Notes under the pieces: generated by a model
Told to the model about the DNA's origin: nothing
Seen by the model: only the letters and a program-made list of their open reading frames with translations
The model's database searches: none
Position numbers and translations under genes: made by a program
Part shown: positions 44,608 through 63,425 of the stretch, one piece after another
Layout of the letters: every line of letters begins with the position of its first letter
How positions within the stretch are numbered: the first letter of the stretch is position 1
From: Thermodesulfobacteriota bacterium
GTDB lineage: Bacteria > Desulfobacterota > Desulfobacteria > Desulfobacterales > C00003060
Direction of reading: 5' to 3'
Length of the DNA: 64,000 bases
Assembly (NCBI GenBank): GCA_034189385.1
Contig: JAXHVD010000002.1
Location: forward strand, 128,001-192,000

Positions 44608-44698
44608 ATCAGTAGTTTCCCCGGCTCGAAATGGGGGTATTTCCAGCCCCAAAATCCGTGATTTCCACAATTGCGCCCTGGTACAATGGGTGTATAAA
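44608..44698 (+). promoter_or_regulatory. Triple-repeat operator plus promoter (island motif copy 1)
   Basis: atcAGTAGTTTCC..aaatgGGGGTATTTCC..aaatcCGTGATTTCC.caaTTGCGC-N16-TATAAA. Confidence 0.6.
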
Positions 44699-46417: not shown

Positions 46418-46810
46418 ATGGACTACATGATCAAGAGGAAAGAGAGCGTTGAACGAAGGAAAGACAAACGGTTTGAGGTCCAGGAGGGAACCTTTGCGGT
46501 GTTCACACCCCATTTCAGCAATTGGGGGCAAGTGATAGATATAAGCAGGCATGGACTTGCCTTTCGCTATACGGGTAAGGGCCTGCCGAAAAACATGCCA
46601 TCTCAGCTAGGCATATCCATAGCCGATATTGGCTTTTATCTGGGCCGGATGCCATTCAAGGTCATTTCGGATTTTGAAATAGCGAGCGCGGGCTCTCACC
46701 GCTTGTCAATGGCAAGGCAATGTGGGGTGGAATTTGGCGAGCTGACTCCTGGTCAGATATCGCAGTTGGAATTTATTATCTCGAACTACACTCAAACTCA
46801 GGGCTATTGA
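46418..46810 (+). CDS. PilZ domain protein
   Basis: ERRKDKRF (RxxxR), DISRHG (DxSxxG), CGVEF. Confidence 0.85.
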   Translation: MDYMIKRKESVERRKDKRFEVQEGTFAVFTPHFSNWGQVIDISRHGLAFRYTGKGLPKNMPSQLGISIADIGFYLGRMPFKVISDFEIASAGSHRLSMARQCGVEFGELTPGQISQLEFIISNYTQTQGY

Positions 46811-47252
46811 TCTTTTCCATGATCAGCTTGATCACTTCCGGTATTTTGCTTTCGATTTCAGGGCTTAACTCCATCGCTGGGGTGCGAACATCCTTGGGCA
46901 CAACGCCGATAAACAAGGTTTCCGGACACTTGCCACTGGCCTTAATGTCGTCCAGCGTTTCAATGAGATGATATTTGCCTACGTCGGTCACTCCATTGAC
47001 AGTTAATGGAACCTCCCCGGGGCTCAGGCACACAATGGTGCCAGGTTCGGCATCTATTTGAAATACATCGACGACGATCATTCTATCCATGCCGTCAATG
47101 ACGTGTGGAAACTCTGAGGCGGACTCGCCCACTTCTAGACATTCCACGTTTTCAGGAAGATCCATTTGCTCCAAGGCCTTGGACACGTGATAGCCGAACC
47201 CTGTGTCGCAAGTATAGGGATAGCCGGTGCACAAAATCAAAGCACGTTTCAT
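46776..47252 (-). CDS. Divergent hydrogenase maturation protease-like protein
   Basis: HybD/HycI fold pattern (D.G.G..V, IVVD, EPGTI, IGVVP, ELSPEI) with an altered N-terminal motif. Confidence 0.75.
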   Translation of the reverse strand: MKRALILCTGYPYTCDTGFGYHVSKALEQMDLPENVECLEVGESASEFPHVIDGMDRMIVVDVFQIDAEPGTIVCLSPGEVPLTVNGVTDVGKYHLIETLDDIKASGKCPETLFIGVVPKDVRTPAMELSPEIESKIPEVIKLIMEKINSPEFECSSR

Positions 47253-47458
47253 TAATTCCTTCCATCCTTGTGTTGTTCGGTGTAAAAATGGTAGTAGAGC
47301 ATGGGCCAGACATTCCTGTCAACGACTTAGAAGGCTTCACGTAACATGAGATTTGCTGGTTGTCAAGGAAACCGGGCGGTGACAGGCTCAAGGTGTCAAC
47401 ATGAACAAAATCGGCGAGAATACGAAATTTTGAAAACACTTTTTAAGAGGACCTAGAC

Positions 47459-48469
47459 ATGGGAATAGATAAGATTCTTCTGGATCACGGAAGTGGAGGA
47501 AAAGCATCTCATAGCCTGATTGCTGAACTCTTGATCCCCCAGTTCGAAAACCCGATCCTTGCCGCACTGAACGACGGCGCCATCTTTGACATTGAAGCAA
47601 AGCGGCTTGCCTTTTCCACCGATACCTATGTGGTCGATCCGCTATTCTTTCCTGGTGGAAACATTGGAGACCTTGCCGTTAACGGCACCGTCAATGATCT
47701 TGCCATGTGCGGGGCAACCCCCCTTTATCTGAGTGTGGGTCTGATCATTGAAGAGGGCTTTTCCACGACGGACCTGAAAAAGATACTCGAAACAATGAAA
47801 CAAGCGGCAGCCAAGGCCCATGTCCTGATTGTCACCGGCGATACAAAGGTGGTGCCGAGGGGGGTAGCAGACAAGATATTCATTAACACCTCGGGAGTTG
47901 GAGTGATCCCAGAGGAGACAACGATTTCCGGGCACAACGCCCGTCCTGGGGATAAGGTTATCATCAGCGGTACTATTGCGGACCATGGTATTACCGTCCT
48001 GACCCAAAGAGAAGGGATGGCCTTTGAGTCCCCGATCCAAAGCGATACTGCGCCTCTAAACCACCTGGTACGGGAAATGATGGCTTCAAGTGACCAGATT
48101 CACGCCTTAAGAGATCCGACCAGAGGGGGGGTCGGAACCTCGCTGAACGAGATTGCCATCCAGTCCAAGGTGGGAATAGAGATCTACGAGGAAGCCGTCC
48201 CCATGCGAGAAGAGGTTTCAGGAGTATGCGAACTTCTGGGCTTCGATCCCCTCTATATTGCCAATGAAGGAAAACTCCTGTGCTTTGTGGCACCGGACGA
48301 CGCTGAAAAGGTGTTGGCAACGATGAGAGCCAACGAATTCGGAAAAGAAGCCAGTATCATCGGCAGGGTCGTTGCCGATTCTCCGGCCAAGGTCTCTATG
48401 AAAACCCCTATTGGGGGGATCCGAATTGTGGACATGCTTGCGGGAGAACAACTCCCCCGTATTTGCTGA
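47459..48469 (+). CDS. hypE: Hydrogenase maturation protein HypE
   Basis: HGSGG, GTVNDLAM, GDTKVV, RDPTRGG, C-terminal LPRIC. Confidence 0.97.
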   Translation: MGIDKILLDHGSGGKASHSLIAELLIPQFENPILAALNDGAIFDIEAKRLAFSTDTYVVDPLFFPGGNIGDLAVNGTVNDLAMCGATPLYLSVGLIIEEGFSTTDLKKILETMKQAAAKAHVLIVTGDTKVVPRGVADKIFINTSGVGVIPEETTISGHNARPGDKVIISGTIADHGITVLTQREGMAFESPIQSDTAPLNHLVREMMASSDQIHALRDPTRGGVGTSLNEIAIQSKVGIEIYEEAVPMREEVSGVCELLGFDPLYIANEGKLLCFVAPDDAEKVLATMRANEFGKEASIIGRVVADSPAKVSMKTPIGGIRIVDMLAGEQLPRIC

Positions 48470-48699
48470 GTCTTGATGGCATCTTATTCTTCTCCAATCG
48501 GAAAAAATACGCATTATCTGTCCTAAACATGACCAAGTTTGCCGGACAGAGGGATTAGATCCATGGTTTTCCGATGAATAAACCAGTAGTCTTCAGCGCA
48601 AAAATCAGTAATTCTCACAATTGCGCTGGCAGACAGTGAAGCTATGATGAGAGAAGAAAGTAGAGAAATCTTCACATCAGCCATTGACAGACACCATTT

Positions 48700-49041
48700 A
48701 TGCACGAGTTATCGATTACGCAGGGTGTATTGCAAATAGTCCTTGACGAGGCCACCAAGCATTCGATTTCTAAAGTGAGCCTGGTGAAATTGAAGATAGG
48801 AGAGCTCTCGGGCATCGAGACGTCCTCTCTTACCTTCTGCTTTGAACTTCTGACTAAAGATACTCTGGTAGAGGGGGCAGATCTTGAAATAGATGTGGTC
48901 CCTATCAAACGAAAATGCCCCAACTGTCATGAGGTTTTTGAGTGTGATCATTTTTCATTTGTTTGCCCAGCCTGTTCAAGTGTCAACACAGAGCTGATCA
49001 CTGGCAGAGAGCTTTATGTGGAACACATTGAAGGCGAGTAA
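48700..49041 (+). CDS. hypA: Hydrogenase nickel incorporation protein HypA
   Basis: MHE N-terminus, CPNC...CPAC, GREL. Confidence 0.95.
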   Translation: MHELSITQGVLQIVLDEATKHSISKVSLVKLKIGELSGIETSSLTFCFELLTKDTLVEGADLEIDVVPIKRKCPNCHEVFECDHFSFVCPACSSVNTELITGRELYVEHIEGE

Positions 49042-49046
49042 AGAAT

Positions 49047-49292
49047 CCTGGCCCGAAGGACCAGGCTTTGATTTGCCCCTGAAAGGGGCTGTTTTCTGAA
49101 TACTGGACAAGTTCAAAGTGCCTGAAGTGAGCTAAAGTGCCTAAAGTGATGGAAGTCGCTTCGCTCCATTCTTTTATATAATTGGCACAATTCCTTAACT
49201 TTAGCGCACGTTAGTGCACTTAAAACTTTAGGCACTCTTAACGATATTTGGCAAAGCCAGTTTACTCTGACCTGGCCCAAAGGACCAGGTTT
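49047..49292. repeat. Intergenic element: inverted 9-mer arrays flanked by direct-repeat hairpins
   Basis: cctggccc.aaggaccagg at 49047 and 49271; aaagtgcct units versus actttaggc units. Confidence 0.6.
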
Positions 49293-49325
49293 TCTGGGAC
49301 GGAATAAAGAATAGGAGGTCACTGT

Positions 49326-49997
49326 ATGAAGATACCGGTGATAAGAAAAATCTTGGAGGCGAATGATCATATAGCGGAAGAAAACCGAAAGATATTCGCT
49401 GAAAACGGGATTTTCGTTTTGAATCTCATGAGTTCGCCGGGAGCAGGTAAAACATCGCTTCTTGAAAGGACGATAGACGCCCTTCATAAGGATTTGCGAA
49501 TAGGGGTGATAGAGGGAGACGTCCAGACCAGCATTGATGCAAAGAAGATTTCAAAAAAGGGTGTTCCTACGGTCCAGATCAACACCGATGAGGCCTGTCA
49601 TTTAGATGGAAATATGATTAGGGCCACCTTGGATTCCTTTGATCTTAAATCCCTTGATCTTTTGATCATAGAAAATGTTGGCAATTTGGTCTGTCCTGCT
49701 GAATTTGATACAGGAGAAAACCATAAGGTCGTGGTCCTGAGTATCCCCGAGGGAGATGACAAGCCAGCGAAGTACCCTCTCATGTTTCATGAATCAAAGG
49801 TCCTACTGATCAACAAGATAGATCTGGTGCCTTATGTCGACTGTAGCATCAATAAGATTAAGAAATCTGCCCTGAAGATCAATCCTGACCTTGAAATATT
49901 TGAAGTCTCCTGTAAGACTCAGGAAGGCCTTTCCCAATGGTATGAGTGGATAAAGAAAAAGGTTCATGCATACACTCGAAGAAAGTCCAAGAGGTAG
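49326..49997 (+). CDS. hypB: Hydrogenase nickel incorporation GTPase HypB
   Basis: SSPGAGKT, IEGD, CHLD, ENVGNLVCPA, EGDDKP. Confidence 0.97.
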   Translation: MKIPVIRKILEANDHIAEENRKIFAENGIFVLNLMSSPGAGKTSLLERTIDALHKDLRIGVIEGDVQTSIDAKKISKKGVPTVQINTDEACHLDGNMIRATLDSFDLKSLDLLIIENVGNLVCPAEFDTGENHKVVVLSIPEGDDKPAKYPLMFHESKVLLINKIDLVPYVDCSINKIKKSALKINPDLEIFEVSCKTQEGLSQWYEWIKKKVHAYTRRKSKR

Positions 49998-52290
49998 AGC
50001 CAAGGCCACGATTCAAGGCATTGTGCAGGGTGTGGGCTTTAGGCCATTCGTATACCAACTTGCCCAGGAAAGACAATTCAAAGGGTACGTAGCCAACACG
50101 GCTTTTGGCGTCGATCTTGAGGTCGAAGGGAATCTGGCGGCTATTGAAGATTTTCTTCGAGACATTGAGGCGAAGAAGCCACCTCTGGCAGAGATTACCC
50201 TGTTTGAAACTGTTTTCCTTCCTTTGAAATCCTACCAAGAGTTTACCATTGAAGAGAGTAGATCTGATACAGAGCGTTCGGTCTTGATATCACCTGATAC
50301 AAGCATTTGTGACGACTGCCTCAGTGAATTGCTCGATCCGTCAGATAGGCGCTACAGATATCCTTTTATCAACTGCACGAACTGTGGACCCAGGTATACC
50401 ATCATTAAAGACATTCCCTATGACAGGGATAAGACCACCATGAAAGTCTTTAAGATGTGCAAGGCCTGCAATAAAGAGTACCGTGATCCCTTGAACCGAA
50501 GATTCCATGCCCAACCCAATGCATGCTGGGATTGTGGCCCCAGGGTCCGTTTATACGATCACAAGAGAGACGTCATCCCTTGCGATGACCCTATTAAGGA
50601 GACCGTCAGACTGCTCAAAGAGGGTCATATACTGGCCATCAAAGGGTTAGGCGGATTTCACCTTGCAGTGGATGCGACCCGTGACGAGGCAGTAGCGCGC
50701 TTGCGGCGAAGGAAGCATAGGGAAGAGAAACCCTTTGCCGTCATGTCTAGAGACATGGAGTCCGTTAGAAGATATGCCCATGTGACCAGGGACGAAGAGG
50801 AACTCCTCACATCGTCAAGAAGGCCTATTGTATTGTTGAGGAAAAAAGAGGGCCACGAACTCTCTCAAGGGGTATCACCGAGAAACAAGAACGTTGGGGT
50901 GATGCTTCCCTATACGCCCCTTCACTATCTGATCTTTGAGGGGGATTTTCTGGCATTGGTGATGACAAGCGGCAACATGACCGAGGAGCCCATTGTCATC
51001 GACAATGACGATGCCTTTGACAGGCTTTCATCCATTGCAGACTATGTGCTCGTACACAACAGAGACATATGTTTGAGGAGTGACGACTCTGTTTTAAGGG
51101 TTGTCGACGGTGTGGCCAGACAGATGAGGAGGTCCCGCGGTTATGTGCCTGTCCCTGTATTTCTGAAATGGGAGGCAGAGCCTGTCTTGGCTTGTGGGGC
51201 AGATCTAAAAAACACCATATGCCTCACCAAGGGGAATTGTGCCTTTTTAAGCCAACACGTAGGCGACGTGGAAAACCTGGAGACCTTAGATTTCCTAAAA
51301 TTGACTGTAGGCCATCTCAAGCGGATTCTAGAGATTGATCCTAGGATCATTGCCTATGATCTCCATCCGGGGTACCACAGTACCCATTTTGCCCTGGAGC
51401 AAAAGGATATCCAGCTCATCGGGGTTCAACATCATCATGCCCACATTGCGAGCTGCATGGCGGAAAATGGCGTGGATGAAACGGTGATAGGACTGTCCCT
51501 AGACGGCACCGGCTATGGTCTGGATGGCAGGATTTGGGGCGGAGAGGTGTTGCTGTGTAATCTGCGTGACTTCGAGAGGGTGTGCCACTTTGATGATGTC
51601 CCCATGCCCGGAGGCACCGCTGCCATCAAGGAGCCGTGGCGCATGGCGATCAGTTATCTTTATCATGCCTATGACGGGCAATTCATGGATCTTGAACTGG
51701 ATTTCTTGAAGTCATTGGATGAAAAGGAGGTCAAGGTCATTCTGAAGATGATAGAACACGGGATTAACTCTCCCTTCACATCGAGCCTGGGCAGGCTTTT
51801 TGATGGCATTGCCGCACTGATTGGTCTGAGACAGAGGGTCAAGTATGAAGGACAGGCTGCTATGGAATTGGAGATGGCGATTGAGGAGAACAGAGATTCT
51901 CTCTACCCTTACGAAATCAGCGGCCAAGACCCGAGTATGATCTTCAGGCATGAACCGATCATCAAGGGGGTGGTAAGAGATCTCCAAAGAGGATTGTCTC
52001 AGGGTAGCATCAGCGCCAAGTTTCACTATACCTTATTAGAGATGTTAAGTGAGATATGTATCAGAATCAGAGAAAAGAGGAGTCTGAACGCCGTTGCCTT
52101 AAGCGGCGGGGTCTTTCAAAATGCCTTTCTCCTCGAGGGTCTGACCAAGAGGCTCCACGATAAAGGTTTTGAAGTCTATACCCATTCTAAGGTGCCCACG
52201 AACGACGGCGGAATCTCCTTGGGCCAGGCCGTGATTGCCGATGCCCTGTCTAAAGGGGAGCCCATCTCTTCTGAAAAACTGGGTTCATGA
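49966..52290 (+). CDS. hypF: Carbamoyltransferase HypF
   Basis: GIVQGVGFRP, CTNCGPRY zinc fingers, KGLGGFHL, QHHHAH, NDGGISLGQ. Confidence 0.97.
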   Translation: MHTLEESPRGRAKATIQGIVQGVGFRPFVYQLAQERQFKGYVANTAFGVDLEVEGNLAAIEDFLRDIEAKKPPLAEITLFETVFLPLKSYQEFTIEESRSDTERSVLISPDTSICDDCLSELLDPSDRRYRYPFINCTNCGPRYTIIKDIPYDRDKTTMKVFKMCKACNKEYRDPLNRRFHAQPNACWDCGPRVRLYDHKRDVIPCDDPIKETVRLLKEGHILAIKGLGGFHLAVDATRDEAVARLRRRKHREEKPFAVMSRDMESVRRYAHVTRDEEELLTSSRRPIVLLRKKEGHELSQGVSPRNKNVGVMLPYTPLHYLIFEGDFLALVMTSGNMTEEPIVIDNDDAFDRLSSIADYVLVHNRDICLRSDDSVLRVVDGVARQMRRSRGYVPVPVFLKWEAEPVLACGADLKNTICLTKGNCAFLSQHVGDVENLETLDFLKLTVGHLKRILEIDPRIIAYDLHPGYHSTHFALEQKDIQLIGVQHHHAHIASCMAENGVDETVIGLSLDGTGYGLDGRIWGGEVLLCNLRDFERVCHFDDVPMPGGTAAIKEPWRMAISYLYHAYDGQFMDLELDFLKSLDEKEVKVILKMIEHGINSPFTSSLGRLFDGIAALIGLRQRVKYEGQAAMELEMAIEENRDSLYPYEISGQDPSMIFRHEPIIKGVVRDLQRGLSQGSISAKFHYTLLEMLSEICIRIREKRSLNAVALSGGVFQNAFLLEGLTKRLHDKGFEVYTHSKVPTNDGGISLGQAVIADALSKGEPISSEKLGS

Positions 52291-52327
52291 AGAGGTCACT
52301 CTCCAGCCTTCTTCAAGAACCCAGGTC

Positions 52328-53608
52328 TTACTCACTCCTCTGCAGGGTCAGGCCATACTCCTTTTCTACACTGGCTGCCATCACCACGGCCTTGTCTATT
52401 TCATCATAGGCAAAGGTGTCGTTTTTCAATACCAGGTGGGGTGCTTTGTCGTCGAACTGCAAGCCAAACTTGTCGGCCTTTGAGTAAAGCTCGGTCCCTG
52501 GGAGGACATGGAGAATACTAAAGACGATCGTTGTGGGTTTGAGTTCCATCATGGCCTTGACGGACCTGCAAAACCTGAAGAAATTGTCCCCTGGAAGCCC
52601 GATAATGAGATCGGTCAATACCTCAATGCCGGCATCAAGTAAGAGTGTGATACCCCGGTTGAACTTTTCCTTTCGGTAGTAACGATTCACATTGTTTAGG
52701 GTGGTGGCGTTCACCGTTTGCGGGCCCGTTTCCACGCTCAAGACATTTGCCTCTTTCAATAGCTGAATCGTTTCTTCATCAATCAGCTCAGTCATGACCT
52801 CCACCGTGCGCAAGCCGGCACCAAAGCTATTGGCATGAGAAAACATCTGGGCCAACCTCCTGAGCCTATTCTTCTTCAGGTTAAACACCGAATCGACGAC
52901 GTGGAAACTGCGGATGTGAGGGTTGCTCATGATCAATTCGATTTCTTGCTTTACCCGTTCCTCAGGGAAAAACCTGAGCCTTGGAAAGTTCTTTCCTTCA
53001 AAGCAAAAGGCGCACTGATAAGGGCATCCGCGGAATGTCTCAAGATAGGTCACCTCATCTGTGGGTGTGAGAATTCCAGTCAAGTAAGGTGATGGGATAT
53101 CCCCCAGATCGTCTATAAGGGGCCTGTCTTCGGTGCTCACGACCCGGCCGTTTTTCCGATAGGTAATCCCCTTAATAGATGCCAGTGAATCGCCCCCGCC
53201 CACGTATGACCGCACCAACTCCTGAAAGGTAACCTCCCCTTCTCCGCGGACAATGACGTCCACTGCTGGATGCCCCATCATGTATTTCTCTGCTGCCGGT
53301 CCAACCTCAGGTCCACCGAAAATGATCTTCATTTCCGGATAGAGCTGCTTCAATAATCTGGAAAGATCCAGAATCTTATCCATATTCCAGCAATAACAGG
53401 AAAACCCCACGACATCGGGCTTTTCTTTGGAAAGATAGCAAAGGGCCTGTCGCACGTCGTGGATCTCTGCGTCAAAATCCACGATCTGAATGAGGGCGCC
53501 ACGGCGAATCAAGGGATCTTTTTCTGCGTACGCTTTCAGATATCCGGCCGCCAGAGAAAAATGATTGGACCAGTTGAATCCCATTAAGGTGACCTTAACC
53601 TTGTCCAT
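52328..53608 (-). CDS. B12-binding radical SAM protein (class B methyltransferase-like)
   Basis: N-terminal cobalamin domain (VGFSCYCWN, GGPEV, GEGE); RGCPYQCAFC; LIIGLPGD. Confidence 0.9.
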   Translation of the reverse strand: MDKVKVTLMGFNWSNHFSLAAGYLKAYAEKDPLIRRGALIQIVDFDAEIHDVRQALCYLSKEKPDVVGFSCYCWNMDKILDLSRLLKQLYPEMKIIFGGPEVGPAAEKYMMGHPAVDVIVRGEGEVTFQELVRSYVGGGDSLASIKGITYRKNGRVVSTEDRPLIDDLGDIPSPYLTGILTPTDEVTYLETFRGCPYQCAFCFEGKNFPRLRFFPEERVKQEIELIMSNPHIRSFHVVDSVFNLKKNRLRRLAQMFSHANSFGAGLRTVEVMTELIDEETIQLLKEANVLSVETGPQTVNATTLNNVNRYYRKEKFNRGITLLLDAGIEVLTDLIIGLPGDNFFRFCRSVKAMMELKPTTIVFSILHVLPGTELYSKADKFGLQFDDKAPHLVLKNDTFAYDEIDKAVVMAASVEKEYGLTLQRSE

Positions 53609-54488
53609 TGCCCCCTGTCCCACCCTCATTTAGCTCCATGAGGATCCTCATATCCTCTATATGCCTGCTCTTTGGAACGGGCATGAGGTGATCGTGTCCA
53701 AAGTGATCCAAATAGCCCCTGTCCATGCCCGGACAGACGTCGTCATAGACGCATCTCTTACAATCTTCGGATTTCTTGTACGCGCCGTAAGGCGTGCCAT
53801 ATATTTCTGACACGTGGTGTTCCATGCCTGTCATGGCGCAGAGAGGAATTCCTCTTGTCACGATCCATACCCTGTTCAAGATAGCCCCGCTGATGGCATT
53901 CTGAATGTAGGGCAGTGCCTTGGACATCTCCAGCCCACTATCGTCATAGGAGAGGATGATACGATCCACTTGATAGGGAATGAAGCTCAAGGCGATGGGG
54001 CCAACATCTTCATAATTGTGCCTTGATATGGGTATTCTCAAGCTGATGAAGGCGCTGAAAGGGGCTTGATCAAGGGTGGTGATGGTGCGCAGGTTGATGA
54101 CCCCCTGCACGGTTTCTTGCAGACTCCCACTCACCTGAGTCACATCATCGTGGATATCGGGCCGATAGTGATGGACCTTTATTTCAAAGAAGTAACATCC
54201 AGACTCTACGGTTTTGACGGCAGTATGGCCATCGGCAAAGGCCCTGGCGTTGGTCAGAAGCTTGATCCTTTTAAAACCCTGATCACGAGCAGTATCCAAG
54301 ATACTGAAAAAATCTCTCCTAAGAGTGGGCTCTCCCCCGCAGAGTTCTAAGCTGTCCACGCCGTCGTTTCGGGTCAACTGGGCCGCTATTTCCGAAAGCT
54401 CAGGATCATCGGGCCTGTTGCTCTTGCGACAGTAAAGGCAGCTATTGTTACACTGACTGCCCACATAGACCCTTTTGTATATCAGCAC
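53595..54488 (-). CDS. Radical SAM protein (HxsC-like, with C-terminal Cys cluster)
   Basis: CNNSCLYC, GGEPT, TNAR, IPLC, CKRCVYDDVCPG. Confidence 0.85.
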   Translation of the reverse strand: MLIYKRVYVGSQCNNSCLYCRKSNRPDDPELSEIAAQLTRNDGVDSLELCGGEPTLRRDFFSILDTARDQGFKRIKLLTNARAFADGHTAVKTVESGCYFFEIKVHHYRPDIHDDVTQVSGSLQETVQGVINLRTITTLDQAPFSAFISLRIPISRHNYEDVGPIALSFIPYQVDRIILSYDDSGLEMSKALPYIQNAISGAILNRVWIVTRGIPLCAMTGMEHHVSEIYGTPYGAYKKSEDCKRCVYDDVCPGMDRGYLDHFGHDHLMPVPKSRHIEDMRILMELNEGGTGGNGQG

Positions 54489-54535
54489 TTGAAACTCCCA
54501 TATGTGGAGAAATCAGCCCCTTTTCCTGGCCACAC

Positions 54536-54815
54536 CTAGTGTCATGAACCAGAAATAACTGTCATTAGTCACTGTGCCGCCGAAAGCCTTTTACGTGCGA
54601 CATTGAGTATTTTCGGAATCAGAGGTCAGCTGAGTGAAGCGTTAGGAATCATAAACTGTTTGATCCGCCGCGGCGGAGAGTTATAGCGCTGACGCTTCAC
54701 TTCGTGCATGATTCAGCGCAGCGAAGCTGACTTCCCGGAAATGCTCACGGAGCCCGGAAAATGGCTTTATGGCGGCAGTCTATTTCTTAAAGGGACTTCT
54801 GAGACACGACACTAG
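54536..54815 (+). mobile_element. MITE family A, complete copy
   Basis: CTAGTGTC...GACACTAG; the right CTAG contains the stop codon of 54812-55153. Confidence 0.85.
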
Positions 54816-55153
54816 TGGTCCTCCGTTGGTTCTTCTTCTGCATCTAATATTTCTTTCTCATAAACCTCTAAGCCCTTCACAACGTCATGGAGGCTGCTAT
54901 CTTCAGGAAGTCTTTCCGACAAACTCTTGATCTTGCCCCTGATGCATGCTTCGCAGGCCACCAGAAGCTCTTCCTCAAGTGCAGGTGCAGGGAGCATAGA
55001 ACAGGCCGGGCAGATAGCAATACGATCAGGGCCCAGCCAGATCTCGTCTGGGTATCCTTTTGCCACGTGCTCACAGGCCAACCACATCACCTGCTCTCCA
55101 TGTCTTGGGCACTCGCCCATCTTCTTGTCGAAGTCTTCCGCCTTAAACGTCAT
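54812..55153 (-). CDS. Small Cys-rich hypothetical protein (possible metal binding)
   Basis: CPRHG, ACEH, CPAC, CEAC; GGAGG RBS. Confidence 0.75.
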   Translation of the reverse strand: MTFKAEDFDKKMGECPRHGEQVMWLACEHVAKGYPDEIWLGPDRIAICPACSMLPAPALEEELLVACEACIRGKIKSLSERLPEDSSLHDVVKGLEVYEKEILDAEEEPTEDH

Positions 55154-55230
55154 GCTTTCCCTCCCTTGTTAATAGCCTGCCCATTCAACGTTTGATGTTG
55201 GACGTTCGATGTTCAAGGTTCATCTTCATG

Positions 55231-55527
55231 TTACTTATCTTTCGCCTTACACGGGACTCGATACATCACCCAGGCGTCGCCCGTTTCTATGTCCCACGTT
55301 TCGTAACGCTCAATCGTTGCCCCCTCTAGGAGCGGCTCTGAGCCCTTTTCCTCCATTTCTGCTACGAGTTCGCCTATCTCTTTTTCAAAATCAACGTCCC
55401 CATCTTCGCTAAATAGGTGCTTGGGAATCTTGAAGGCCTTGCCGCGATAGACCGTCGGATCCCCTGTCTGTTGCTCTGTGACGCCCTTTTGAGTAGGATA
55501 GTAAGCGACTGTGACTTTGTGCCCCAT
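55231..55527 (-). CDS. Small acidic hypothetical protein
   Basis: AAGGAGG RBS; co-oriented between hypD and the radical SAM genes. Confidence 0.75.
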   Translation of the reverse strand: MGHKVTVAYYPTQKGVTEQQTGDPTVYRGKAFKIPKHLFSEDGDVDFEKEIGELVAEMEEKGSEPLLEGATIERYETWDIETGDAWVMYRVPCKAKDK

Positions 55528-55603
55528 GATGCCCTCCTTTTCTTCACGTTTTCACCGATACCACCAAAGAAGGGATGCTACGAAAGGTGGCTGGCGCCTT
55601 TAT

Positions 55604-55906
55604 CTAGTGTCGTGTCTTAGAAGTGCTTTTAAGAAGTAGAGTGCCGCCTTCAAGCCATTTTCCGGGCTCCGTGAGCATTTCCGGGACGTCAGCTTCGCTT
55701 CGCTGAATCATGCACGAAGTGGCTCTTTTCAAGCCATGAGGCGCAACCGTCAGCGCTATAACTCTCCGCCAGGGCGGATCAAACAGTTTATGATTCTTAG
55801 CGCTTCACTCAGCTGACCTCTGATTCCGAAAATGCTCAATGTCGCACGTAAAAGGCTTTCGGCTACACAGTGACTAATGACACTTATTTCTGGTTCATGC
55901 TACTAG
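55604..55906 (-). mobile_element. MITE family A, complete copy
   Basis: Bounded by CTAG at both ends; reverse complement of 54536-54815. Confidence 0.85.
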
Positions 55907-55915
55907 GATCACGAT

Positions 55916-57004
55916 TTAGAACTGGCTGTACTTGTAATAGGCAGCACAGGTCCCCTCACTGGATACCATGCAGGGACCTACGGGATTTTCAGGCGTGCAA
56001 ACAGTTTGGAAGAGCTTGCATTCCTTGGGTGTCTTAACACCACGGAGGATGTCGCCGCATTTGCACCCGGGCGGCTCAGGGCAGTCCGGAACCTCCAGGT
56101 CGAACAGGGCATCTGCATCAAAGCTCCTATAGGCCTCTCGCAGGGCAAGTCCACTCTTCGGAATGACTCCAAGACCTCGCCACGGTGCGTCACAAGGCTC
56201 AAAGACCCGGAACAGGGTTTTCATGGCATTCACATTGCCCTCAGGTGCTACTGCCCGTCGGTATTGAATTTCCACTCGGGCTTCGCCCGCTTCTATTTGG
56301 CTTACCAGCATAGAGATTCCCTGCAAGATGTCCAGAGGTTCAAAGCCCACAACAACACAGGGGGTATGATAGTTGGCGGCCACCAGCTCATAGGAGGCCG
56401 TTCCAATAACCGTAGTCACATGCCCGGGGCAGATAAACCCGCTGACATCCAGCTCCCCTCCCGAAAGGAGGGCATCCATGGCCGGCGGAAGGAGTTTGTG
56501 AGACGAGAGGACCGAAAAGTTCTTGATCCCTTCCACTTCGGCCGCCACTACAGCAGCAGCAATGGTGGGAGCCGTTGTCTCAAATCCCACTCCGAGAAAT
56601 ACCACTTTTTTTTCGGGGTGTTGCCGGGCAATCTCCAGGGCATCCATCGTCGAATAGACCATGCGCACGTCAGCACCCAAACTCTTTTCATGTTGCAATG
56701 ACGACTTAGACCCAGGCACCCGGATCATGTCCCCGAAGGTCGTCACAATCACACCCGGTATCTGCGCGAGTTTGAGCGCTTTATCGATGTCGCGGGCAGC
56801 GGTGACGCACACCGGACAACCAGGGCCTGAGATCAGAGCCACGTGTTCAGGCAGGACCTCACGGATACCGTATTTGAAGATGGCCACCGTGTGCGTGCCG
56901 CAAACTTCCATGAACCGGGCCGGCTTTTGGGACGTGGCCTTAATACGGTCCGCCATCTTGAGGGCCACAGAGGCATCCCGGTATTCACTCAGGTATTTCA
57001 TCAA
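55916..57004 (-). CDS. hypD: Hydrogenase maturation protein HypD
   Basis: EVCGTH, GPGCPVC, GFETT, PGHV, GPCMVSSEGTC. Confidence 0.97.
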   Translation of the reverse strand: MMKYLSEYRDASVALKMADRIKATSQKPARFMEVCGTHTVAIFKYGIREVLPEHVALISGPGCPVCVTAARDIDKALKLAQIPGVIVTTFGDMIRVPGSKSSLQHEKSLGADVRMVYSTMDALEIARQHPEKKVVFLGVGFETTAPTIAAAVVAAEVEGIKNFSVLSSHKLLPPAMDALLSGGELDVSGFICPGHVTTVIGTASYELVAANYHTPCVVVGFEPLDILQGISMLVSQIEAGEARVEIQYRRAVAPEGNVNAMKTLFRVFEPCDAPWRGLGVIPKSGLALREAYRSFDADALFDLEVPDCPEPPGCKCGDILRGVKTPKECKLFQTVCTPENPVGPCMVSSEGTCAAYYKYSQF

Positions 57005-57218
57005 TCACCCCCATCTCTTTCCAAAGCTCCAGGGTGATTCGAGCTTCCTCGGGATCAATCCTATGAAGAGCAAAACCAGCATGAATGATCACATAGTCTC
57101 CAACCTCGGGCCTTTCATCCACAATGTCCAGACGGGCATCTTTCGTGACACCAGCCAGTTCGGCGCGGATGGTGTCCCCCTCCACTTCAATCACTTTCAT
57201 CGGTGCTGCCACGCACAT
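56985..57218 (-). CDS. hypC: Hydrogenase chaperone HypC
   Basis: MCVAAP N-terminus; GDYVIIHAGFA. Confidence 0.95.
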   Translation of the reverse strand: MCVAAPMKVIEVEGDTIRAELAGVTKDARLDIVDERPEVGDYVIIHAGFALHRIDPEEARITLELWKEMGVIDEIPE

Positions 57219-57328
57219 GAGATCATCCCTCCTACCTTATTTGCGAGAGTTTTGCATCACTCTTCCGGAACCTGTTATTATTGTACGACGCACCAGAGCA
57301 AGTGTCAAATGAGTTTATGCACCCAGAT

Positions 57329-57549
57329 CTAGCGTCGTGTTAAAAAGTAGAGTGCCCGCCTTCAAGCCATTTTCCGGGCTCCGTGAGCCTTTCCAGCACG
57401 TCAGCTTCGCTCCGCTGAATCATGCACGAAGTGGCTCTTTTCAAGTCGTCAGGCGCAACCGTTAGCGCTATAACTCGGGCCTACGGCCTCAAATCCCGAC
57501 GTGTCGGGACTGCACAGTGACTAATGACACTTCTGGTTCATGACACTAG
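57329..57549 (-). mobile_element. MITE family A, internally deleted copy
   Basis: CTAG...GACACTAG ends; matches the other copies. Confidence 0.8.
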
Positions 57550-57600
57550 CGGCCGCTGACAATGGGTTAGGGGAAGCCGCCCCGAGGACTTGCCCCGCCC

Positions 57601-57689
57601 AGTAGTTATCCGGTGGTAAAATCAGGCCTTTTAGGGCGCAAAACCGGGACAACTCCCTATTGTATCATCGTTTAGTATTCGCTAATAAT
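57601..57689 (+). promoter_or_regulatory. Triple-repeat operator plus promoter (island motif copy 3), upstream of the hydrogenase genes
   Basis: AGTAGTTATCC..aaatcAGGCCTTTT..aaaccGGGACAACTCCctaTTGTAT-N17-TAATAA. Confidence 0.55.
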
Positions 57690-58367
57690 CGGTCATGCTC
57701 TGAACCCTAGGTTGTATCGTGTGATCTTCGGTCATGATCCGAACGTATCTTGAGCTCTTTGAACCAACTCTGCCGACCCGTTTACAGGAGTTCTGGGGTG
57801 TCTTGTATGGCATCAGGCAATACCAGGGAGTACGTATTTCAAATTGAAAACATACCTAGAGAAGCAAAAAAGTTTTGGTAAGACAGGTTGCAACAGGAGT
57901 CATGTAGGATGAGGGAATGGGAAATTGTACAAAATAACGCACTGTTATCAATAGAAAAATCATGGCGGGCCCCGGGCTCGCGGCACGTCCCGGTGTGGGG
58001 TTGCTATTCTGTGTTCTTTGAGATTAGGATCAAATTTGATTGGAAATAGAATCGGTGCGAATCCATTTTGCTCACTCCGTGAGCATGTTAGCAGCGTCTG
58101 CTTAACTCTGGTAGGTCACGAAAAGTCCGGCCTCGTGGCCCTACAAAAGTCAGCGACTCGCAACGCTTCAGTCGAGCAGGCGTCTTAGTCTTAAAAGGGT
58201 AGCATGTTTTTCGCAATTGGCCGTGGCTTTTGTGCTGTTGCTATTTTCTTAATGAAAGGGGGTGAAACACCAAGAGATGGAAAGAGCCTTTCCTGTGTGC
58301 CCTTGTGCACAAAGGAAGGACCCTTGTAACCTTTAGACATAGTTTGACAAAGGGGGGAGACACAACA

Positions 58368-59603
58368 ATGAATATTACCAGAAGGCAATTTTTGCACTAC
58401 TGCACTGCCTCTGCCGCCGCCCTGGGCCTCAGCCAGATGGATCTCTTGAAGCTGGAAAAGGCCTTGGCGACACCGCAGACAGGCTGCGGCAGCCCGACAC
58501 CTTCGGTGATCTGGATGACTGGCCAGGCATGCTCCGGATGCCAGACATCGCTGCTGAACCGGGTGGTGGATACTGGTGGCACGGGCTACTATGATGCAGA
58601 TTTGTTGAATGCCCTTACCGGCGGCGCATTTCCTCAAGGGGTCCCCAGCGATCCTATTCCGGAATTGAACGTGGTAAACGACGTGGCGGATCTGCTGGTG
58701 GGCGATGCCGTTGGCACCCTGGTGCCGGCCATCACCCCAAGGGGCCTCACGTGGGCGCCATTTTCGAATGGTTACGTCACGCTGGAGTGGCTGACCACGG
58801 TGAACGCCGGCGCCGGCGACATTAATGTCCAGCACATCAAGAACATCGTCAATACCGGCGGTTTTTTTCTGTTGCTGGACGGCTCGATTCCTGTGTTAGA
58901 TGAGAATTTCTGTCTCGTCTTTGATAACGAGGTGAATGACGGTGTGGGAGGGACCAAGATCATTTCCAGCCTTCCGCTCGGGCCGATTACCCTGTCTGAT
59001 GCCCTCAGGTGGATGATACCACAGGCAGCTGCCTGCATCAGCGTGGGCACATGTTCTGCCTTTGGAGGCATCCCGTCCGGCAAGAAGAACAAGACGGGCG
59101 CCATAGGGCTTCAGCAATTCATGAGCGATAATTCGCTTTCCAAGCCGTTGATCAATGTGCCCGGCTGTCCGCCTCATCCGGACTGGATCGTCTATCCGGT
59201 GGCACAGATCCTGATTCACGGCCTGCCGTCCGTACTGGCTCCAGGTTGGCTGGACGCCTGGGGCAGGCCAGCAGCGACTTTCGGCAATCAGCCCTTCTGC
59301 TCAGCGGCAGGTTCTTCCTGTGCGAACCACCCGTCCATGGGTGCGGGCTTTGCCCAACACCTGGGTGACGACGGTTGCCAGGGGAACATGGGCTGTAAGG
59401 GGCCCATCACCTTTGGGGATTGCCCTTCCCGTCAGAAGAACGTGTTCGACGACGGCACAGTGAACAACTGGTGTTCTGCCGGCTCCCGAGGGCCCAATAT
59501 CGCCCAGGCCCGGCACGTTTGCCAGAGTTGTATTCAACCGGACTTTCCGGATCCACCAACATCCCCATTCTACGAGCCGGCATCCGGCGCTAGCCCGGTT
59601 TAA
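58368..59603 (+). CDS. [NiFe(Se)] hydrogenase small subunit, Tat-exported
   Basis: TRRQFL Tat motif; CSGC, GTC, PGCPPHP; GCKGP...DC...NWC...CQSC..PDFPD; GGGGGAG RBS before ATG 58368. Confidence 0.93.
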   Translation: MNITRRQFLHYCTASAAALGLSQMDLLKLEKALATPQTGCGSPTPSVIWMTGQACSGCQTSLLNRVVDTGGTGYYDADLLNALTGGAFPQGVPSDPIPELNVVNDVADLLVGDAVGTLVPAITPRGLTWAPFSNGYVTLEWLTTVNAGAGDINVQHIKNIVNTGGFFLLLDGSIPVLDENFCLVFDNEVNDGVGGTKIISSLPLGPITLSDALRWMIPQAAACISVGTCSAFGGIPSGKKNKTGAIGLQQFMSDNSLSKPLINVPGCPPHPDWIVYPVAQILIHGLPSVLAPGWLDAWGRPAATFGNQPFCSAAGSSCANHPSMGAGFAQHLGDDGCQGNMGCKGPITFGDCPSRQKNVFDDGTVNNWCSAGSRGPNIAQARHVCQSCIQPDFPDPPTSPFYEPASGASPV

Positions 59604-59618
59604 AGGAGGTGAAATAGC

Positions 59619-61958
59619 ATGGCAACACTAAGAATAGCACCTGTTAATAGAATCGAAGGACATATGGATGTCTCGGCCACGACCGATGTGAACAAGGTCG
59701 TCACTCACGTAGACAACGAGGTAGTCATGTTCCGCGGCCTTGAAAATGTCATGGTCAAGCGGGACCCGCGGGACGCACCCATTATCACGCCACGTACCTG
59801 AGGCGTCTGACCGATTACACATGGCTCGGCGAGCCATAAAGCGGTTGGAGAGGCCTATGGGTTCAAGGTGGACTACTCTCACTCAAACACTGGTGGCTAT
59901 CCAGGCGGACCTGCCGATTTTTGGGCAAACAACGCCAGCGGAACGCCCACCATCAACAAACTGTATGAGGATGTTCCGGCCAATGGCGTATTGCTCAGAA
60001 ACCTGGCCATGGCGTCCAACTACCTCATGTCCCACATTCTGCATTTCTACCATCTGGTAGCCTTGGATTATGTGGATGTAAACGGCACGGGGCTGATCCC
60101 GAAAGGGTTCCTCTGCCCGAACTATGACAGTAACTACTACGCCAGGGGGATCGACCCTGTCTTGCAGACAGGCGGTCTCGGAGCGCCGGCGTACACGGTC
60201 AACAATGCCCCTGTGGCGAACCCAAACGTTCCCGCAGGCGTTGCCGGCGATCTCACCCCCTACCTTGCAGGACAGTATGTGCGCGCCTTAAAGGCGCGCC
60301 GGATGGCCCATCAGCTCGGCGCCATCTTTGCGGGCAAGATGCCCCATGCCTCCTGTTTCACACCGGGGTGCGTAACGACTAAGTCGTACGATCCCACGCC
60401 GGGCGGCTCTGACGCTGCCGTGGTGAACAAGGTTCACGAGCTACTCTACGGTGGGCCCGGATTTGACGCGACCGCCCCGGGTGCACTCACCATGTCCAAC
60501 CCCCATCCGGAAAGCCTCATGGGCTTTATCGGAAAGCCCAGCGATTTCTGGAATTGGGCTGCGGACGCCAGTGGATCCACAGGCGGTTTGGGCTTTGGCT
60601 TTGCGCCCGAGTTTCTCCCGCCATGGGCAGCCGCTGGTGCGGCAACCGCAGGACCACTGGCCGGCCTCCTTGGGTCAGGGCCGTGGACACACGGCGGCAC
60701 CTTCATGTTTGATACGGTGGCCGCTGCCCACTGCTTCCCCGAGTACTTCTGGATCGGTTCCGGCTACGGCCGTTACCTGGCCTGGGGGATCTTTGAGGGG
60801 GCAGCCCCAGGGCACCCGGACGAAAGGCTCCTGACCAGGGGTCGGGTCCACACGCCGCTGGCGCCCAATCCTCCGGGGACACCCTACGCATATGACTACA
60901 AGCATCATGGTGCGGACCACTTGAAGGCCAAGGAGTTTACCACAAACTCCTGGTACTATGATCCCGCGGGGATCGACTACGGGCGGCACATGTGGAAGGG
61001 CAAGACCAAGCCGAGGTCCCGTGCGACCAAGCCCAGTGCCTACACCTTTGCCAAGACCCCGCGCTACAAAAACAATGCGAGCACGGCTGCCTGGGAGATT
61101 GCCGATCATCCCAACGCCGCCTATCTTCCCTACGAGGTGGGACCGCTTGCCAGGATGATATCCAATGCCTCTCTGCTGACCACACCGGGCGGCCCAGCCA
61201 CAGCAGGCGAAGTGGTTGCCGTGGACAGCGGGGCCTTTGGGTGTTACTACCCGGGTATCCTCGCAGATGTGGATGCCGTTCTGGCTCCCGCAGGTGTCGG
61301 AGGACCATCGCCCATTGGCGTGTTCCCGGGCAGGGGAGTCAACATGACAGCGCACATCACCTTTCTGGCCGGTGCGGGCGTTTTCTACCTGCCGCCAAAC
61401 GCCTTCTCACCACAGGTATTGGGGAACGGTTTCCACAGCGACTACATGGGCGGTGCCACGCTGGACAGGATCGCGGCCAGGACCCTGGAGACGTACTACG
61501 TGGGGGCGCAGATGCTCAACTGGTTTAACGCCCTTAACCCAGCCGCCCAGTCCAACAAGACCCTGTTCTTTGACTATAGCGGCTTCACGAACAAGACAGC
61601 GCCCAAGAAGGCGAAAGGCGCAGGCCTGACTGAGGCCCCAAGGGGCGCTCTCGGGCACTGGATCAAGATCGGCAAGCCTGACGGGACTTGGAAGGGCAAG
61701 ACGGAAAGGTACCAGATCATCACGCCCACGGCCTGGAACATCAGCCCCAAGGATGCCGTTAATGCGACAGAGAAGACCCTGGGTCTGATGGGTCCCATTG
61801 AAAGGTGCATCTGGGGTACCCCTGTGGTGGCCGAATCAGAGCCGATCGAGGTGTTGAGGATTATCCATTCCTTTGACCCGTGCTGTGCCTGTACGGTCCA
61901 TCTGATGAACCCGAAAAAGGAGAAGGTGGCCGAGGTCACACTCGAAGCCCTCATGTAG
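59619..61958 (+). CDS. [NiFeSe]-type hydrogenase large subunit with two in-frame UGA (predicted Sec) in the N-terminal motif; 779 aa
   Basis: RIEGH, FRGLE, RDPRDA, then R-T-TGA-G-V-TGA-P-I-T-H; frame runs on into the 59868 ORF; EAPRGALGHW, DPCCACTVH and a C-terminal extension; AAGGAGG RBS. Confidence 0.9.
59802..59855 (+). promoter_or_regulatory. Putative bacterial SECIS element
   Basis: Perfect ATGGCTC-ggc-GAGCCAT stem starting 10 nt after the second UGA, with lower stems ccgat/gttgg and ggcgtct/agaggcc. Confidence 0.75.
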
Positions 61959-62001
61959 GAATCCATTCCAACTGGAAGGGAGTTCCTTATAACCTTAAAA
62001 G

Positions 62002-62030
62002 AAAAGGGGCCATTTTATGGCCCCTTTTCT
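62002..62030. terminator. Intrinsic (bidirectional) terminator after the large subunit
   Basis: aaaaggggccat-ttt-atggcccctttt. Confidence 0.85.
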
Positions 62031-62164
62031 ATTTGATCTCACAAAGCTGGCGCGACCCGCCCGTTGAGTCCTCGCAAGCCATATCGCCATACCCATTGGA
62101 GACAGCCTGGTGTCCCAAGGAATGACTTACATAATTGGCGAGGTCGCCAAGAACGCCGGGGGGG

Positions 62165-62312
62165 AATATCGTAAATCCGAAATTCGAAAATCGAAGCACG
62201 AAACAAATTCGAATGACCAGAATTCCAATGAACGAAAAACTTCACAAACGTTTGAGGACATGATAATATTTAAATTTCTGTCATTGTTTCGGATTTCGTG
62301 CTTCGAGTTTAA
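62165..62312. repeat. Inverted heptamer arrays (AAT.CGA / TCG.ATT type)
   Basis: aaatccgaaattcgaaaatcgaagcacgaaac ... gtttcggatttcgtgcttcgagttt. Confidence 0.6.
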
Positions 62313-62447
62313 TGTCTTGATGACTCTCCGCAGATCATGGATTACTTCCACGATACTGTTATGACGATGCGTGCGTTTTGGCGGGGAAACTGGTATACTA
62401 TTAATTTTATACTTGGAACGAATCCCCGATGAACAAGGAGGCAATGA

Positions 62448-62918
62448 GTGGAGAGTGATAAGCCTATACTGGTTTTGGGCGTGGGCAACCTGCTGCTGAA
62501 AGACGAAGGGGTGGGCGTCCACGTGGCCCGAAAACTCATGGAGATGGACCTGCCGTCCCATGTGGAGGTCCTGGATGGCGGCACAGGCGGCTTTGATCTG
62601 CTGGATGAGCTCGAAGGGCGCAAAAAGGTGATCGTTGTGGATACGGCGCAGGCGGGAAAGCCTGCCGGGACCATGTATCGCATGACCACAGAGGACATTG
62701 AAAAGACGGAAAAGGCCCGCATCTCTCTCCATGAGATTGACATGACCGATCTGTTGAAGCTGGCCGACCTGTTCAAGATTGAAAAGCCAGAGATCGTGAT
62801 CATCGGCATTGAACCCAAGGACATGGAGAGCGCCAGCACGGAGCTTTCTCCGGAGATCGAGGCCCTCATTCCCAAGGTGATCGACGTTGTGCTCAAGGAA
62901 ATAGGGGTAGATGAGTAG
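62448..62918 (+). CDS. Hydrogenase maturation endopeptidase (HybD/HyaD family), canonical
   Basis: GVGNLLLKDEGVG, DGGT, IVVD, SLHE; AAGGAGG RBS. Confidence 0.93.
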   Translation: MESDKPILVLGVGNLLLKDEGVGVHVARKLMEMDLPSHVEVLDGGTGGFDLLDELEGRKKVIVVDTAQAGKPAGTMYRMTTEDIEKTEKARISLHEIDMTDLLKLADLFKIEKPEIVIIGIEPKDMESASTELSPEIEALIPKVIDVVLKEIGVDE

Positions 62919-62920: not shown

Positions 62921-63425
62921 CAAGTTAGCGCCTCACGGGTTGAAAAGAGGCGCGCCCCCTTATCAACCGTTAGAAATAACACCTAAAAGTGTGCTGGGGT
63001 TGCTAGAAAACGGAAGAACCCTGGTTTGAACCTTTCTGATGCAATGGGAGCCTCGGGAGTATGAAATCCGCTTCTCTTCGGCCTCCAATGCCTTTAGTAG
63101 CTGTGCGAAAATCGATGAGATCGCAAAAAGCACATTTTGCTCGCTCCGTGAGCCTTTTGGGCGCACCCGTAATGTTCGGCTAAAATGCTAAAACTCTCCG
63201 CCGCGGCGGATCAAACAGTTAGCATTTCTTAACGCCAAACATCCCAAGTGCTCTTCTCCCAAAATGCTCAATGTCGTTCGCAAAAGACTTTTTACGAGTT
63301 CATCAAAGATTGGAGGTAGGAATGGCTGTAGGCCTTCGTTCAGCGAATTTCCCCATCCCTCTTTTGCCAAATCCGGGGGGTACAAGTGTTGACAGACCTA
63401 CTATGAGTGGAAACGGGGGGTGGGA
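62921..63425. mobile_element. MITE family B copy, interrupted by a nested family A' element
   Basis: Left TIR caagttagcgcctcacgggttga; body matches about 37170-37446. Confidence 0.8.
63112..63306 (-). mobile_element. Family A' element nested in family B
   Basis: Termini tcgatgagatcgcaaaaag / ctttttacgagttcatcaa; absent from the 37 kb family B copy. Confidence 0.75.

Follow-up and report, generated by a model that had tools for sequence, protein, structure and literature searches.

Can a single hairpin direct the insertion of selenocysteine (Sec) at two UGA codons that lie only three codons apart? Bacterial Sec insertion is understood from one UGA codon followed, at a near-fixed distance, by one hairpin, the selenocysteine insertion sequence (SECIS). 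The question is raised by a gene for a [NiFe]-hydrogenase large subunit in the 64,000-nucleotide (nt) stretch of contig JAXHVD010000002.1 (Thermodesulfobacteriota bacterium, assembly GCA_034189385.1) that was analyzed here and that we call the window. The gene is one frame interrupted by exactly two TGA codons, UGA1 and UGA2, which both occupy Cys places of the N-terminal R-x-C-G-x-C motif, and a short hairpin follows UGA2. We consider it probable that this hairpin is an in-frame bacterial SECIS of an exported, HysA-like group 1 hydrogenase and that the one element serves both codons. That both codons are decoded as Sec, whichever element directs it, appears highly probable.

A hairpin within range of both UGA codons

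The hairpin consists of two 7-bp arms, ATGGCTC (59821-59827) and GAGCCAT (59831-59837), closed by a GGC loop (59828-59830). Its stem begins 19 nt after UGA1 and 10 nt after UGA2, and the corresponding distances to the loop are 26 and 17 nt. A preliminary description of this locus had proposed one SECIS-like hairpin for the two codons, and its coordinates, arms, loop, 10-nt gap and loop distances were all exact. Pair probabilities in the upper stem are 0.87-1.0, and the region 59780-59880 folds at -36.6 kcal/mol (z -2.64), a value equalled by 1 of 200 shuffles. With our own implementation of the bacterial SECIS criteria, rather than bSECISearch, the loop of 3 nt (range 3-9), the stem of 7 bp (4-16), the G at the first loop position, the spacings of 17 and 26 nt (16-37) and the free energy of the isolated 17-mer (-8.5 kcal/mol; limit -7.5 or lower) all fell within range. 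When the 20 codons that follow UGA2 were recoded synonymously 20000 times, such a hairpin survived in only 37 cases, and it is thus not a by-product of the amino acid sequence. No other hairpin with a G-containing loop was found within 8-44 nt of either UGA.

A search of Rfam over 57200-62500 returned six matches up to an E value of 5, none of them on the hairpin and none at the gathering score. Four RNA sequencing runs contained short pieces of relatives, mostly below 95% identity, spread across the operon, which show neither expression of the window gene nor its habitat; none of nine RNA runs contained half of the search words.

The hairpin is kept with the UGA codons and lost with them

Homologs were collected from the best 80 of 405 metagenome matches, from eight genomes of the genus and from reference enzymes. 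The 117 genes parsed comprised 107 distinct ones: 39 with UGA at both places (UxxU, U being Sec), 67 with Cys at both (CxxC) and one CxxU. Ten metagenome loci fell outside the main parse, namely seven without the motif region, one UxxU gene with the same hairpin (L034), one CxxC gene (L094) and one RxxU gene (L051). Trees were computed without the motif and hairpin columns by quick searches under LG+G4 and carry a long-branch warning. Because kin are not independent, the homolog counts given here overstate the number of events. The UxxU genes formed lineages A (22 genes, including that of the window), B (4) and C (12), each with a Shimodaira-Hasegawa-like approximate likelihood ratio (SH-aLRT) support of 100 and together of 98, while the single gene of lineage D (L078) sits on a long branch just outside A, B and C. 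The same two TGA codons are thus present in 39 distinct genes of four lineages, at identities down to about 31%. TGA stands at the UGA1 place and a C follows UGA2 in all 39, and the GTC codon before UGA2 is found in 38 out of 39 UxxU genes compared with 35 out of 67 CxxC genes.

Within lineage A all 22 UxxU genes, whose proteins are 53-94% identical, have the same 17-mer with its GGC loop (alignment A4 contains 21 of them, without L130). Each of the six stem codons is a single codon throughout, against 6 of 160 invariant degenerate columns elsewhere, or 1 of 90 for residues with four- to six-fold codons, and the flanking Pro, Ile, Ala and Gly codons vary. We screened all genes with a strict rule that was set after seeing the data (a stem of at least 7 bp and a loop of 3-4 nt starting with G, in range of both codons). 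Hairpins of this kind were found in 35 out of 39 UxxU genes, in none of the 67 CxxC genes, in the one CxxU gene and at 8 of 725 other in-frame positions used as background. A looser rule derived from the published consensus gave 33 of 39, 5 of 67 and 34 of 725, respectively. The preliminary description had made its reading hinge on such a difference between TGA-bearing and Cys homologs, and the difference is there.

The other lineages carry different hairpins at different distances. That of lineage C has 7 bp and a GTC loop 23 and 32 nt from the two codons, 6 nt further out than in lineage A. It is paired in 132 out of 132 alignment cells with two pairs changed on both sides (A-U/U-A and U-A/G-C), a covariation reached by none of 500 shuffles, although relatedness inflates this figure. 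Immediately after UGA2, and before this far hairpin, lineage C also has one of 5 bp that is invariant (L052:3708-3722 and the other 11 genes); the Cys gene L076 has retained this 5-bp stem and lost the far hairpin. Lineage B has a hairpin of 5-6 bp with a GGCC loop at 20 and 29 nt, lineage D one of 7 bp with a GTG loop at 24 and 33 nt, and the CxxU control (L157) one of 8 bp with a GGT loop 23 nt after its UGA. In the covariation check proposed at the outset, the lineage C hairpin covaries, the lineage A stem is invariant, and the lower stems discussed below show no covariation.

The residues encoded by the hairpin behave similarly. Ser70 and His73 are present in all 22 lineage A UxxU genes and in none of six Cys relatives, and His is absent from the His73 place in all 67 CxxC genes. 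In lineage C, Ser(+9) and Cys(+14) are found in 12 out of 12 UxxU genes and in 0 out of 11 Cys relatives. The earlier suggestion that the atypical residues here are set by RNA structure is borne out by these counts.

One part of the preliminary description did not hold, that is, the extension of the hairpin by the lower stems CCGAT/GTTGG and GGCGTCT/AGAGGCC. The former has a pair probability of 0.20 in the window, where an alternative register, GACCG/CGGTT, reaches 0.72-0.80, and the latter contains a G.G mismatch (59805/59852). Over 18 distinct lineage A rows, pairing at the 12 lower pairs is 80.6% and none of them has changed on both sides; for the whole structure including the lower stems 500 out of 500 shuffles scored at least as high. 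Wobble positions disrupt lower pairs in 7, 8, 20 and 12 of the 22 lineage A genes. The idea that the lower stems belong to the conserved element was therefore rejected.

The Sec machinery and the single-Sec genes of the genome

The genome of the window encodes selA, one selB, a selD with its own in-frame TGA, and a tRNA-Sec with G73, and a tRNA-Sec and a SelB match above the cut-off (the match being cut short in two cases) were found in all eight genomes with a UxxU gene. Together with conservation in TGA genes, absence from Cys genes and frozen wobble positions, the presence of this machinery upholds the identification of the hairpin as a SECIS. Out of nine predicted single-Sec sites of the genome (in SelD, MvhD, Fdh and Hdr), eight have a G-loop hairpin, at loop distances of 16, 18-19, 20, 22, 23, 23, 23 and 27 nt; a TGA in HdrA on contig C16 was excluded from this comparison as a probable gene end. 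The HdrA gene on C4 (stem at 19 nt, loop at 27 nt) resembles the geometry of UGA1 and the Fdh gene on C23 (stem at 11 nt, loop at 18 nt) that of UGA2. These predicted sites imply that one SelB probably handles both distances.

Several related observations were made on the decoding genes. A tRNA-ReC-like gene of 92-93 nt with a GCA anticodon lies directly before a second selB at G011:C4:42125-44172 (L201) and at G024:C246 (L202), and a second selB is also present in genomes G004 and G010. Genome G032 (5% contamination) has two different tRNA-Sec genes (C438:154-248 and C325:20898-20995). The window genome (G000) contains a fusion of cysteine synthase and cysteinyl-tRNA synthetase (G000:C14:40621-41985), with a stand-alone cysS elsewhere.

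A probable single element for two codons, and the alternatives

One element for both UGA codons is the most economical reading in lineage A because no second G-loop hairpin is in range and because single-Sec genes of this genome have hairpins at both distances. We infer SelB binding and reloading, Sec at both places and the geometry of the Ni site as follows. With UGA1 in the A site, the distance to the stem would be 19 nt, and Sec61 would be delivered by SelB-GTP-Sec-tRNA bound at the G-first loop. The hairpin would remain folded over the next three codons, so that at UGA2 its stem, 10 nt downstream, would still be outside the ribosome and a reloaded SelB complex could deliver Sec64. The ribosome would then melt the hairpin and read H-G-S-A-S-H, residues presumably chosen by the RNA. 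In the resulting enzyme Ni would be held by two selenolates of the N-terminal motif (terminal Sec61, and Sec64 bridging to Fe) and by two thiolates of the C-terminal motif, opposite to the arrangement in HysA. Failure at UGA1 or UGA2 would leave a fragment of 60 or 63 residues, which would make synthesis dependent on selenium twice. The ligand roles follow PMC13582414. That a single Sec at either N-terminal ligand can be tolerated is indicated by PMC8020662, where Escherichia coli Hyd-1 with engineered Sec was active at 3% and 13% of native. Both distances in the window also agree with the consensus spacing of 16-37 nt between UGA and loop, as given in PMC13188914.

Several observations weigh against this interpretation. 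The upper stem of E. coli fdhF lies 11 nt from its UGA (PMC8659212), which fits UGA2 only. The lineage A stem, being invariant, offers no covariation, and the four lineage B genes fail the strict rule. The second frozen hairpin of lineage C may be a separate element, in which case the one-element idea might fail for the family as a whole. MvhD on contig C28 lacks a G-loop hairpin under the rule used, one RxxU copy (L051) exists, and a genome of the same genus with a UxxU gene (G011) has a tRNA-ReC-like gene and a second SelB. The one-SECIS reading is moreover a prediction from sequence.

It is rather unlikely that the hairpin is the SECIS of UGA2 only, with UGA1 served by a second signal such as the loose lower helix, another fold or a hairpin of its own. 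The 10 nt that separate UGA2 from the stem are close to the 11 nt of E. coli, lineage B has two mutually exclusive short hairpins, the first of the two frozen tandem hairpins of lineage C begins 9 nt downstream of UGA1 and has G as the second nucleotide of its loop, and the GTC before UGA2 is frozen. Against it, lineage A shows free variation in the codons that separate UGA2 from the stem (CCG, CCT and CCA for Pro; ATT and ATC for Ile), no second G-loop hairpin or covarying lower helix was found there, and one single-Sec gene of the window genome has a geometry of 19 and 26-27 nt. Reading of one or both codons as Cys, through a SECIS-dependent tRNA-ReC (selC*) and SelB*, would yield an ordinary or mono-Sec site and is improbable here. 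It has been proposed for group 4 UXXU genes, about 56% of whose genomes have tRNA-ReC (PMC13582414), and a 92-nt GCA tRNA with U73 adjoins a second SelB in G011 and in G024. However, a second SelB occurs in only one of the eight genomes bearing a UxxU gene, and in the window genome we found one SelB and no tRNA-ReC, in a genome that is 90% complete and an RNA search that scored 150 of 450 candidates. The G011 tRNA had no blastn or nhmmer match there, ARAGORN with a lowered threshold gave noise only, the G011 SelB* matched only the single SelB (37%), and the only GCA tRNA is a canonical one of 75 nt. A second CysS match that might have been a CysRS* was ruled out, since it is a 791-amino-acid (aa) frame that fuses cysteine synthase and CysS.

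We regard it as still less probable that the double UGA is mainly a selenium-sensing gate on expression, with Sec tolerated at the Ni site, a function that would be compatible with one hairpin serving both codons. Such a gate would suit the interleaving of Cys and UxxU forms (at least eight changes) and the UxxU and CxxC paralogs of one genome (G028), but in every lineage the only UGA codons of the gene are those of two metal ligands, and CxxU or UxxC forms, which a mere gate would allow, occur in 0 out of 44 family genes read from DNA. A pseudogene or an assembly error with a chance hairpin has next to no probability: the two stops themselves, and nothing more, speak for it, and it is refuted by TGA codons shared by 39 genes of four lineages, by the conservation of the hairpin and its frozen wobble positions, and by an intact 779-aa frame, operon and fold.

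As to the whole branch, we offer only tentatively a reading in which a site with two Se atoms is ancestral and works only as a pair. A 17-nt hairpin would then load SelB twice, three codons apart, loss would always be of both UGA codons, and the SECIS would have been moved or rebuilt at least three times (17/26, 20/29 and 23/32 nt, with 24/33 nt in the outlier). The first hairpin of lineage C would be either a second SECIS or a 15-nt fold-away that brings the far hairpin within reach of UGA1.

Gain, loss and distribution of the UxxU motif

The Cys forms are interleaved with UxxU forms on the tree, and forcing the UxxU genes of lineage C together was rejected (approximately unbiased test, p-AU 1.6e-6). 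We consider repeated loss of UxxU likelier than repeated gain because the frozen hairpin is held in common across Cys branches; the number of changes itself has no direction. Out of the 44 family genes read from DNA (39 UxxU, 4 CxxC and 1 RxxU) none is CxxU or UxxC. A further 13 Cys forms were taken from protein databases, in which no single-Sec form could be represented in full; two of the database Cys forms were traced to TGY codons in DNA (P0084, which is L076, and L043). The N-terminal motif is missing from 57 of the 63 closest database proteins, and most annotations thus miss the site.

The family was found in 8 out of 37 genomes of the window's genus and, outside the genus, in none of the 386 genomes of the class searched. 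In 400 genomes of the phylum, a lineage C query retrieved no family member and one Cys-type group 1 match. Few additional full-length members, and no DNA, came from a profile search of 50% representatives. One of the metagenome genes (L017, same genus) is identical to the gene of genome G028.

G028 has both a UxxU gene (C96, L128) and a CxxC paralog (C1, L135), which possibly form a selenium-dependent pair. In the lineage B locus L051 (L051:1116-1127) AGA replaces the first TGA, the second TGA is present and the hairpin region is intact. This is probably a damaged copy or an error, since AGA is one base from TGA and leaves no ligand at the first place.

The hydrogenase and its operon

The positions of the features are collected in Table 1. 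The large subunit contains the motifs RIEGH, RTUGVU, EAPRG and DPCCACTVH followed by an 18-aa C-terminal extension, which we take to represent both Ni motifs, the catalytic Glu and Arg and a cleavable extension. It matches PF00374 with 282 bits and is about 280 aa longer than HysA. Its structure model has a mean predicted local distance difference test (pLDDT) score of 88.4, and Desulfomicrobium and Desulfovibrio supply its top 12 fold matches, which are periplasmic [NiFeSe] enzymes with an identity of about 23%. Among PDB sequences, group 1 enzymes matched at 1e-48 to 1e-32 and group 3 enzymes at 1e-16 or weaker. On the tree, whose base is weakly supported, the large subunit is nearer to group 1 than to groups 3 and 4 and far from E. 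coli HycE, and no genes for membrane antiporter-like subunits were found beside the hydrogenase genes in the window. The score against NCBIfam NF045518 is 236 bits for a cut-off of 780, a cut-off that four HysA-type references also miss (699-757 bits). The best family of the small subunit is the NiFeSe small subunit, under the cut-off, its best specific NCBIfam model giving 199 bits for a cut-off of 470. With its leader, its two Pfam domains and its gene upstream of that of the large subunit, it conforms to what is expected of a group 1 enzyme, that of an exported subunit carrying three Fe-S clusters. By sequence, the window enzyme is classed as a group 1, HysA-like enzyme that is not HysA. 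Its role is most likely H2 uptake in the periplasm, as suggested by the Tat-type small subunit, whose leader was called by eye, and by the kinship with group 1.

Table 1 Features of the window discussed in the text (positions are those of the window)
Feature	Position	Strand	Remarks
[NiFe]-hydrogenase large subunit	59619..61958	+	779 aa with TGA read through; one frame, exactly two TGA
UGA1	59799..59801	+	codon 61; first Ni ligand of the N-terminal motif (terminal position); predicted Sec
GTC (Val63)	59805..59807	+	directly before UGA2
UGA2	59808..59810	+	codon 64; second Ni ligand (Ni-Fe bridging position); predicted Sec
Predicted SECIS core	59821..59837	+	7-bp stem, GGC triloop; within codons His68-His73
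Possible loose lower helix around the core	59802..59855	+	register variable, without covariation; not established as part of the element
C-terminal Ni motif	61881..61892	+	C755-C-A-C758, all Cys
Small subunit	58368..59603	+	411 aa, upstream of the large subunit; twin-arginine-type (Tat-type) leader RRQFL; PF01058 and PF14720
Hydrogenase maturation protease	62448..62918	+	downstream of the large subunit
Maturation cluster, overall	46776..57218	both
Second maturation protease	46776-47252	-	hidden Markov model (HMM) match
hypE, hypA, hypB, hypF	47459-52290	+
hypD, hypC	55916-57218	-

The hyp genes were named from sequence motifs. Two radical SAM genes (52328-54488, minus strand) lie within the hyp cluster, one HxsC-like and one B12-binding by HMM, both under all family cut-offs. 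Residues 311-318 of the small subunit (59298-59322) form an F-C-x-x-C-like segment in place of the H-x-x-C of HysB. It is shared by both Sec and Cys forms in lineages A, B and C and suggests an all-Cys distal Fe-S cluster. In the C-terminal motif, the extra Cys of C-C-A-C (Cys756, 61884-61886; noted also in L017, L028-L040 and L129-L131) is found in 14 of the 15 lineage A UxxU genes with a C-terminus, in 50 of 57 N-truncated database proteins and in none of five Cys relatives, and is absent from lineages B, C and D. It might pair with an active-site chalcogen. It was ruled out as a requirement for UxxU, being absent from L042 as well as from lineages B, C and D.

Intergenic repeats were observed at 54535-54815, 55604-55907, 57356-57476, 58060-58103 and 63129-63291, and as the pair 37170-37448 and 62945-63422. 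Situated between the hyp genes and the hydrogenase genes, with copies in either orientation and best pairs that are 91-93% alike, they look like a family of small non-autonomous mobile elements. The region 37785-45623 holds two tandem pairs of PAS histidine kinase and response regulator and a third regulator, which are recent duplicates.

Implications and comparison with known systems

If one hairpin serves two UGA codons 9 nt apart, SelB would have to tolerate a 9-nt shift and reload within three elongation cycles, which would matter for the production of multi-Sec proteins in bacteria. The family offers unusually clean material for the one-element idea, with a frozen element, four spacings, a sister lineage with two hairpins and Cys paralogs, and the spacings across lineages would constitute a natural series for two quick successive Sec insertions by a bacterial ribosome. 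To our knowledge, the natural [NiFeSe] enzymes studied so far have a single Se, in the terminal position and contributed by the C-terminal motif. Compared with the membrane-bound complexes predicted for group 4, a soluble enzyme of two subunits whose terminal and bridging Se both come from the N-terminal motif would be the simpler system. With an engineered single Sec in Hyd-1, the apparent KM for H2 fell from 36.8 uM to 21.9 and 5.3 uM (PMC8020662), which makes high-affinity uptake a testable guess for the window enzyme.

In the literature searched, whose coverage leaves out most subscription journals, a group 1 UxxU enzyme was not described in any paper that we found, and one paper only (PMC13582414) dealt with one bacterial SECIS for two UGA codons. 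We regard the hairpin as a genuine SECIS in a group 1 variant that is undescribed in that literature; the one-element idea is neither new, having been published for group 4b, nor proven. The paper in question (Takano et al., Front Microbiol 2026, September) describes UXXU-type group 4b [NiFeSe] hydrogenases by prediction only, proposes that both UGA codons may be decoded under one downstream SECIS, and raises tRNA-ReC. Groups 1-3 were excluded from its survey, which counts 27 CXXU and 16 UXXU sequences over group 4, and the group 1 N-terminal exceptions that it names are CXXU only. The window gene shares with group 4b UXXU genes the UGA codons at both N-terminal ligands, the G-first apical loop and a mosaic of Sec and Cys forms. 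Unlike them, it encodes a group 1-like enzyme with a Tat-type small subunit and without a membrane arm. CXXU occurs beside UXXU in group 4b, whereas the 44 genes of the window family include neither CxxU nor UxxC, and tRNA-ReC, present in about 56% of group 4 UXXU genomes, accompanies a second SelB in one of eight genomes here.

Two Sec three residues apart, and hence the same decoding problem, are also predicted in bacterial UxxU selenoproteins of the Prx-like, NF041115 metal-binding and FmdB families (PMC13188914, in the portion available). These are small redox or metal-binding proteins rather than hydrogenases, and the listing in that portion contains no such UxxU hydrogenase. Group 1 hydrogenases with an N-terminal CXXU motif are known from Baltazar et al. 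2011, as cited in PMC13582414. The CxxU enzyme of our sample (L157) resembles the window enzyme in having Sec at the bridging ligand; it differs in having one UGA and in grouping with other periplasmic [NiFe] enzymes, far from the window family. In comparison with the bacterial SECIS of E. coli fdhF, the window hairpin is likewise in-frame, with a 3-nt G-first loop, a 7-bp stem and a spacing within 16-37 nt, but it has two UGA codons in range and lacks both the bulged U and the GU in the loop. Among the closest known enzymes are HysAB of group 1a (Desulfomicrobium baculatum, 1cc1; Desulfovibrio vulgaris Hildenborough, 5jsh), which share with the window enzyme the fold, the best NCBIfam models and a two-gene operon without cytochrome b. 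The window family nevertheless branches apart from HysA on the trees, at about 23% identity, and whereas HysA has one Sec in its C-terminal motif (DPULGC, L141-L143), the window enzyme has Cys there (DPCCAC) and two predicted Sec in the N-terminal motif.

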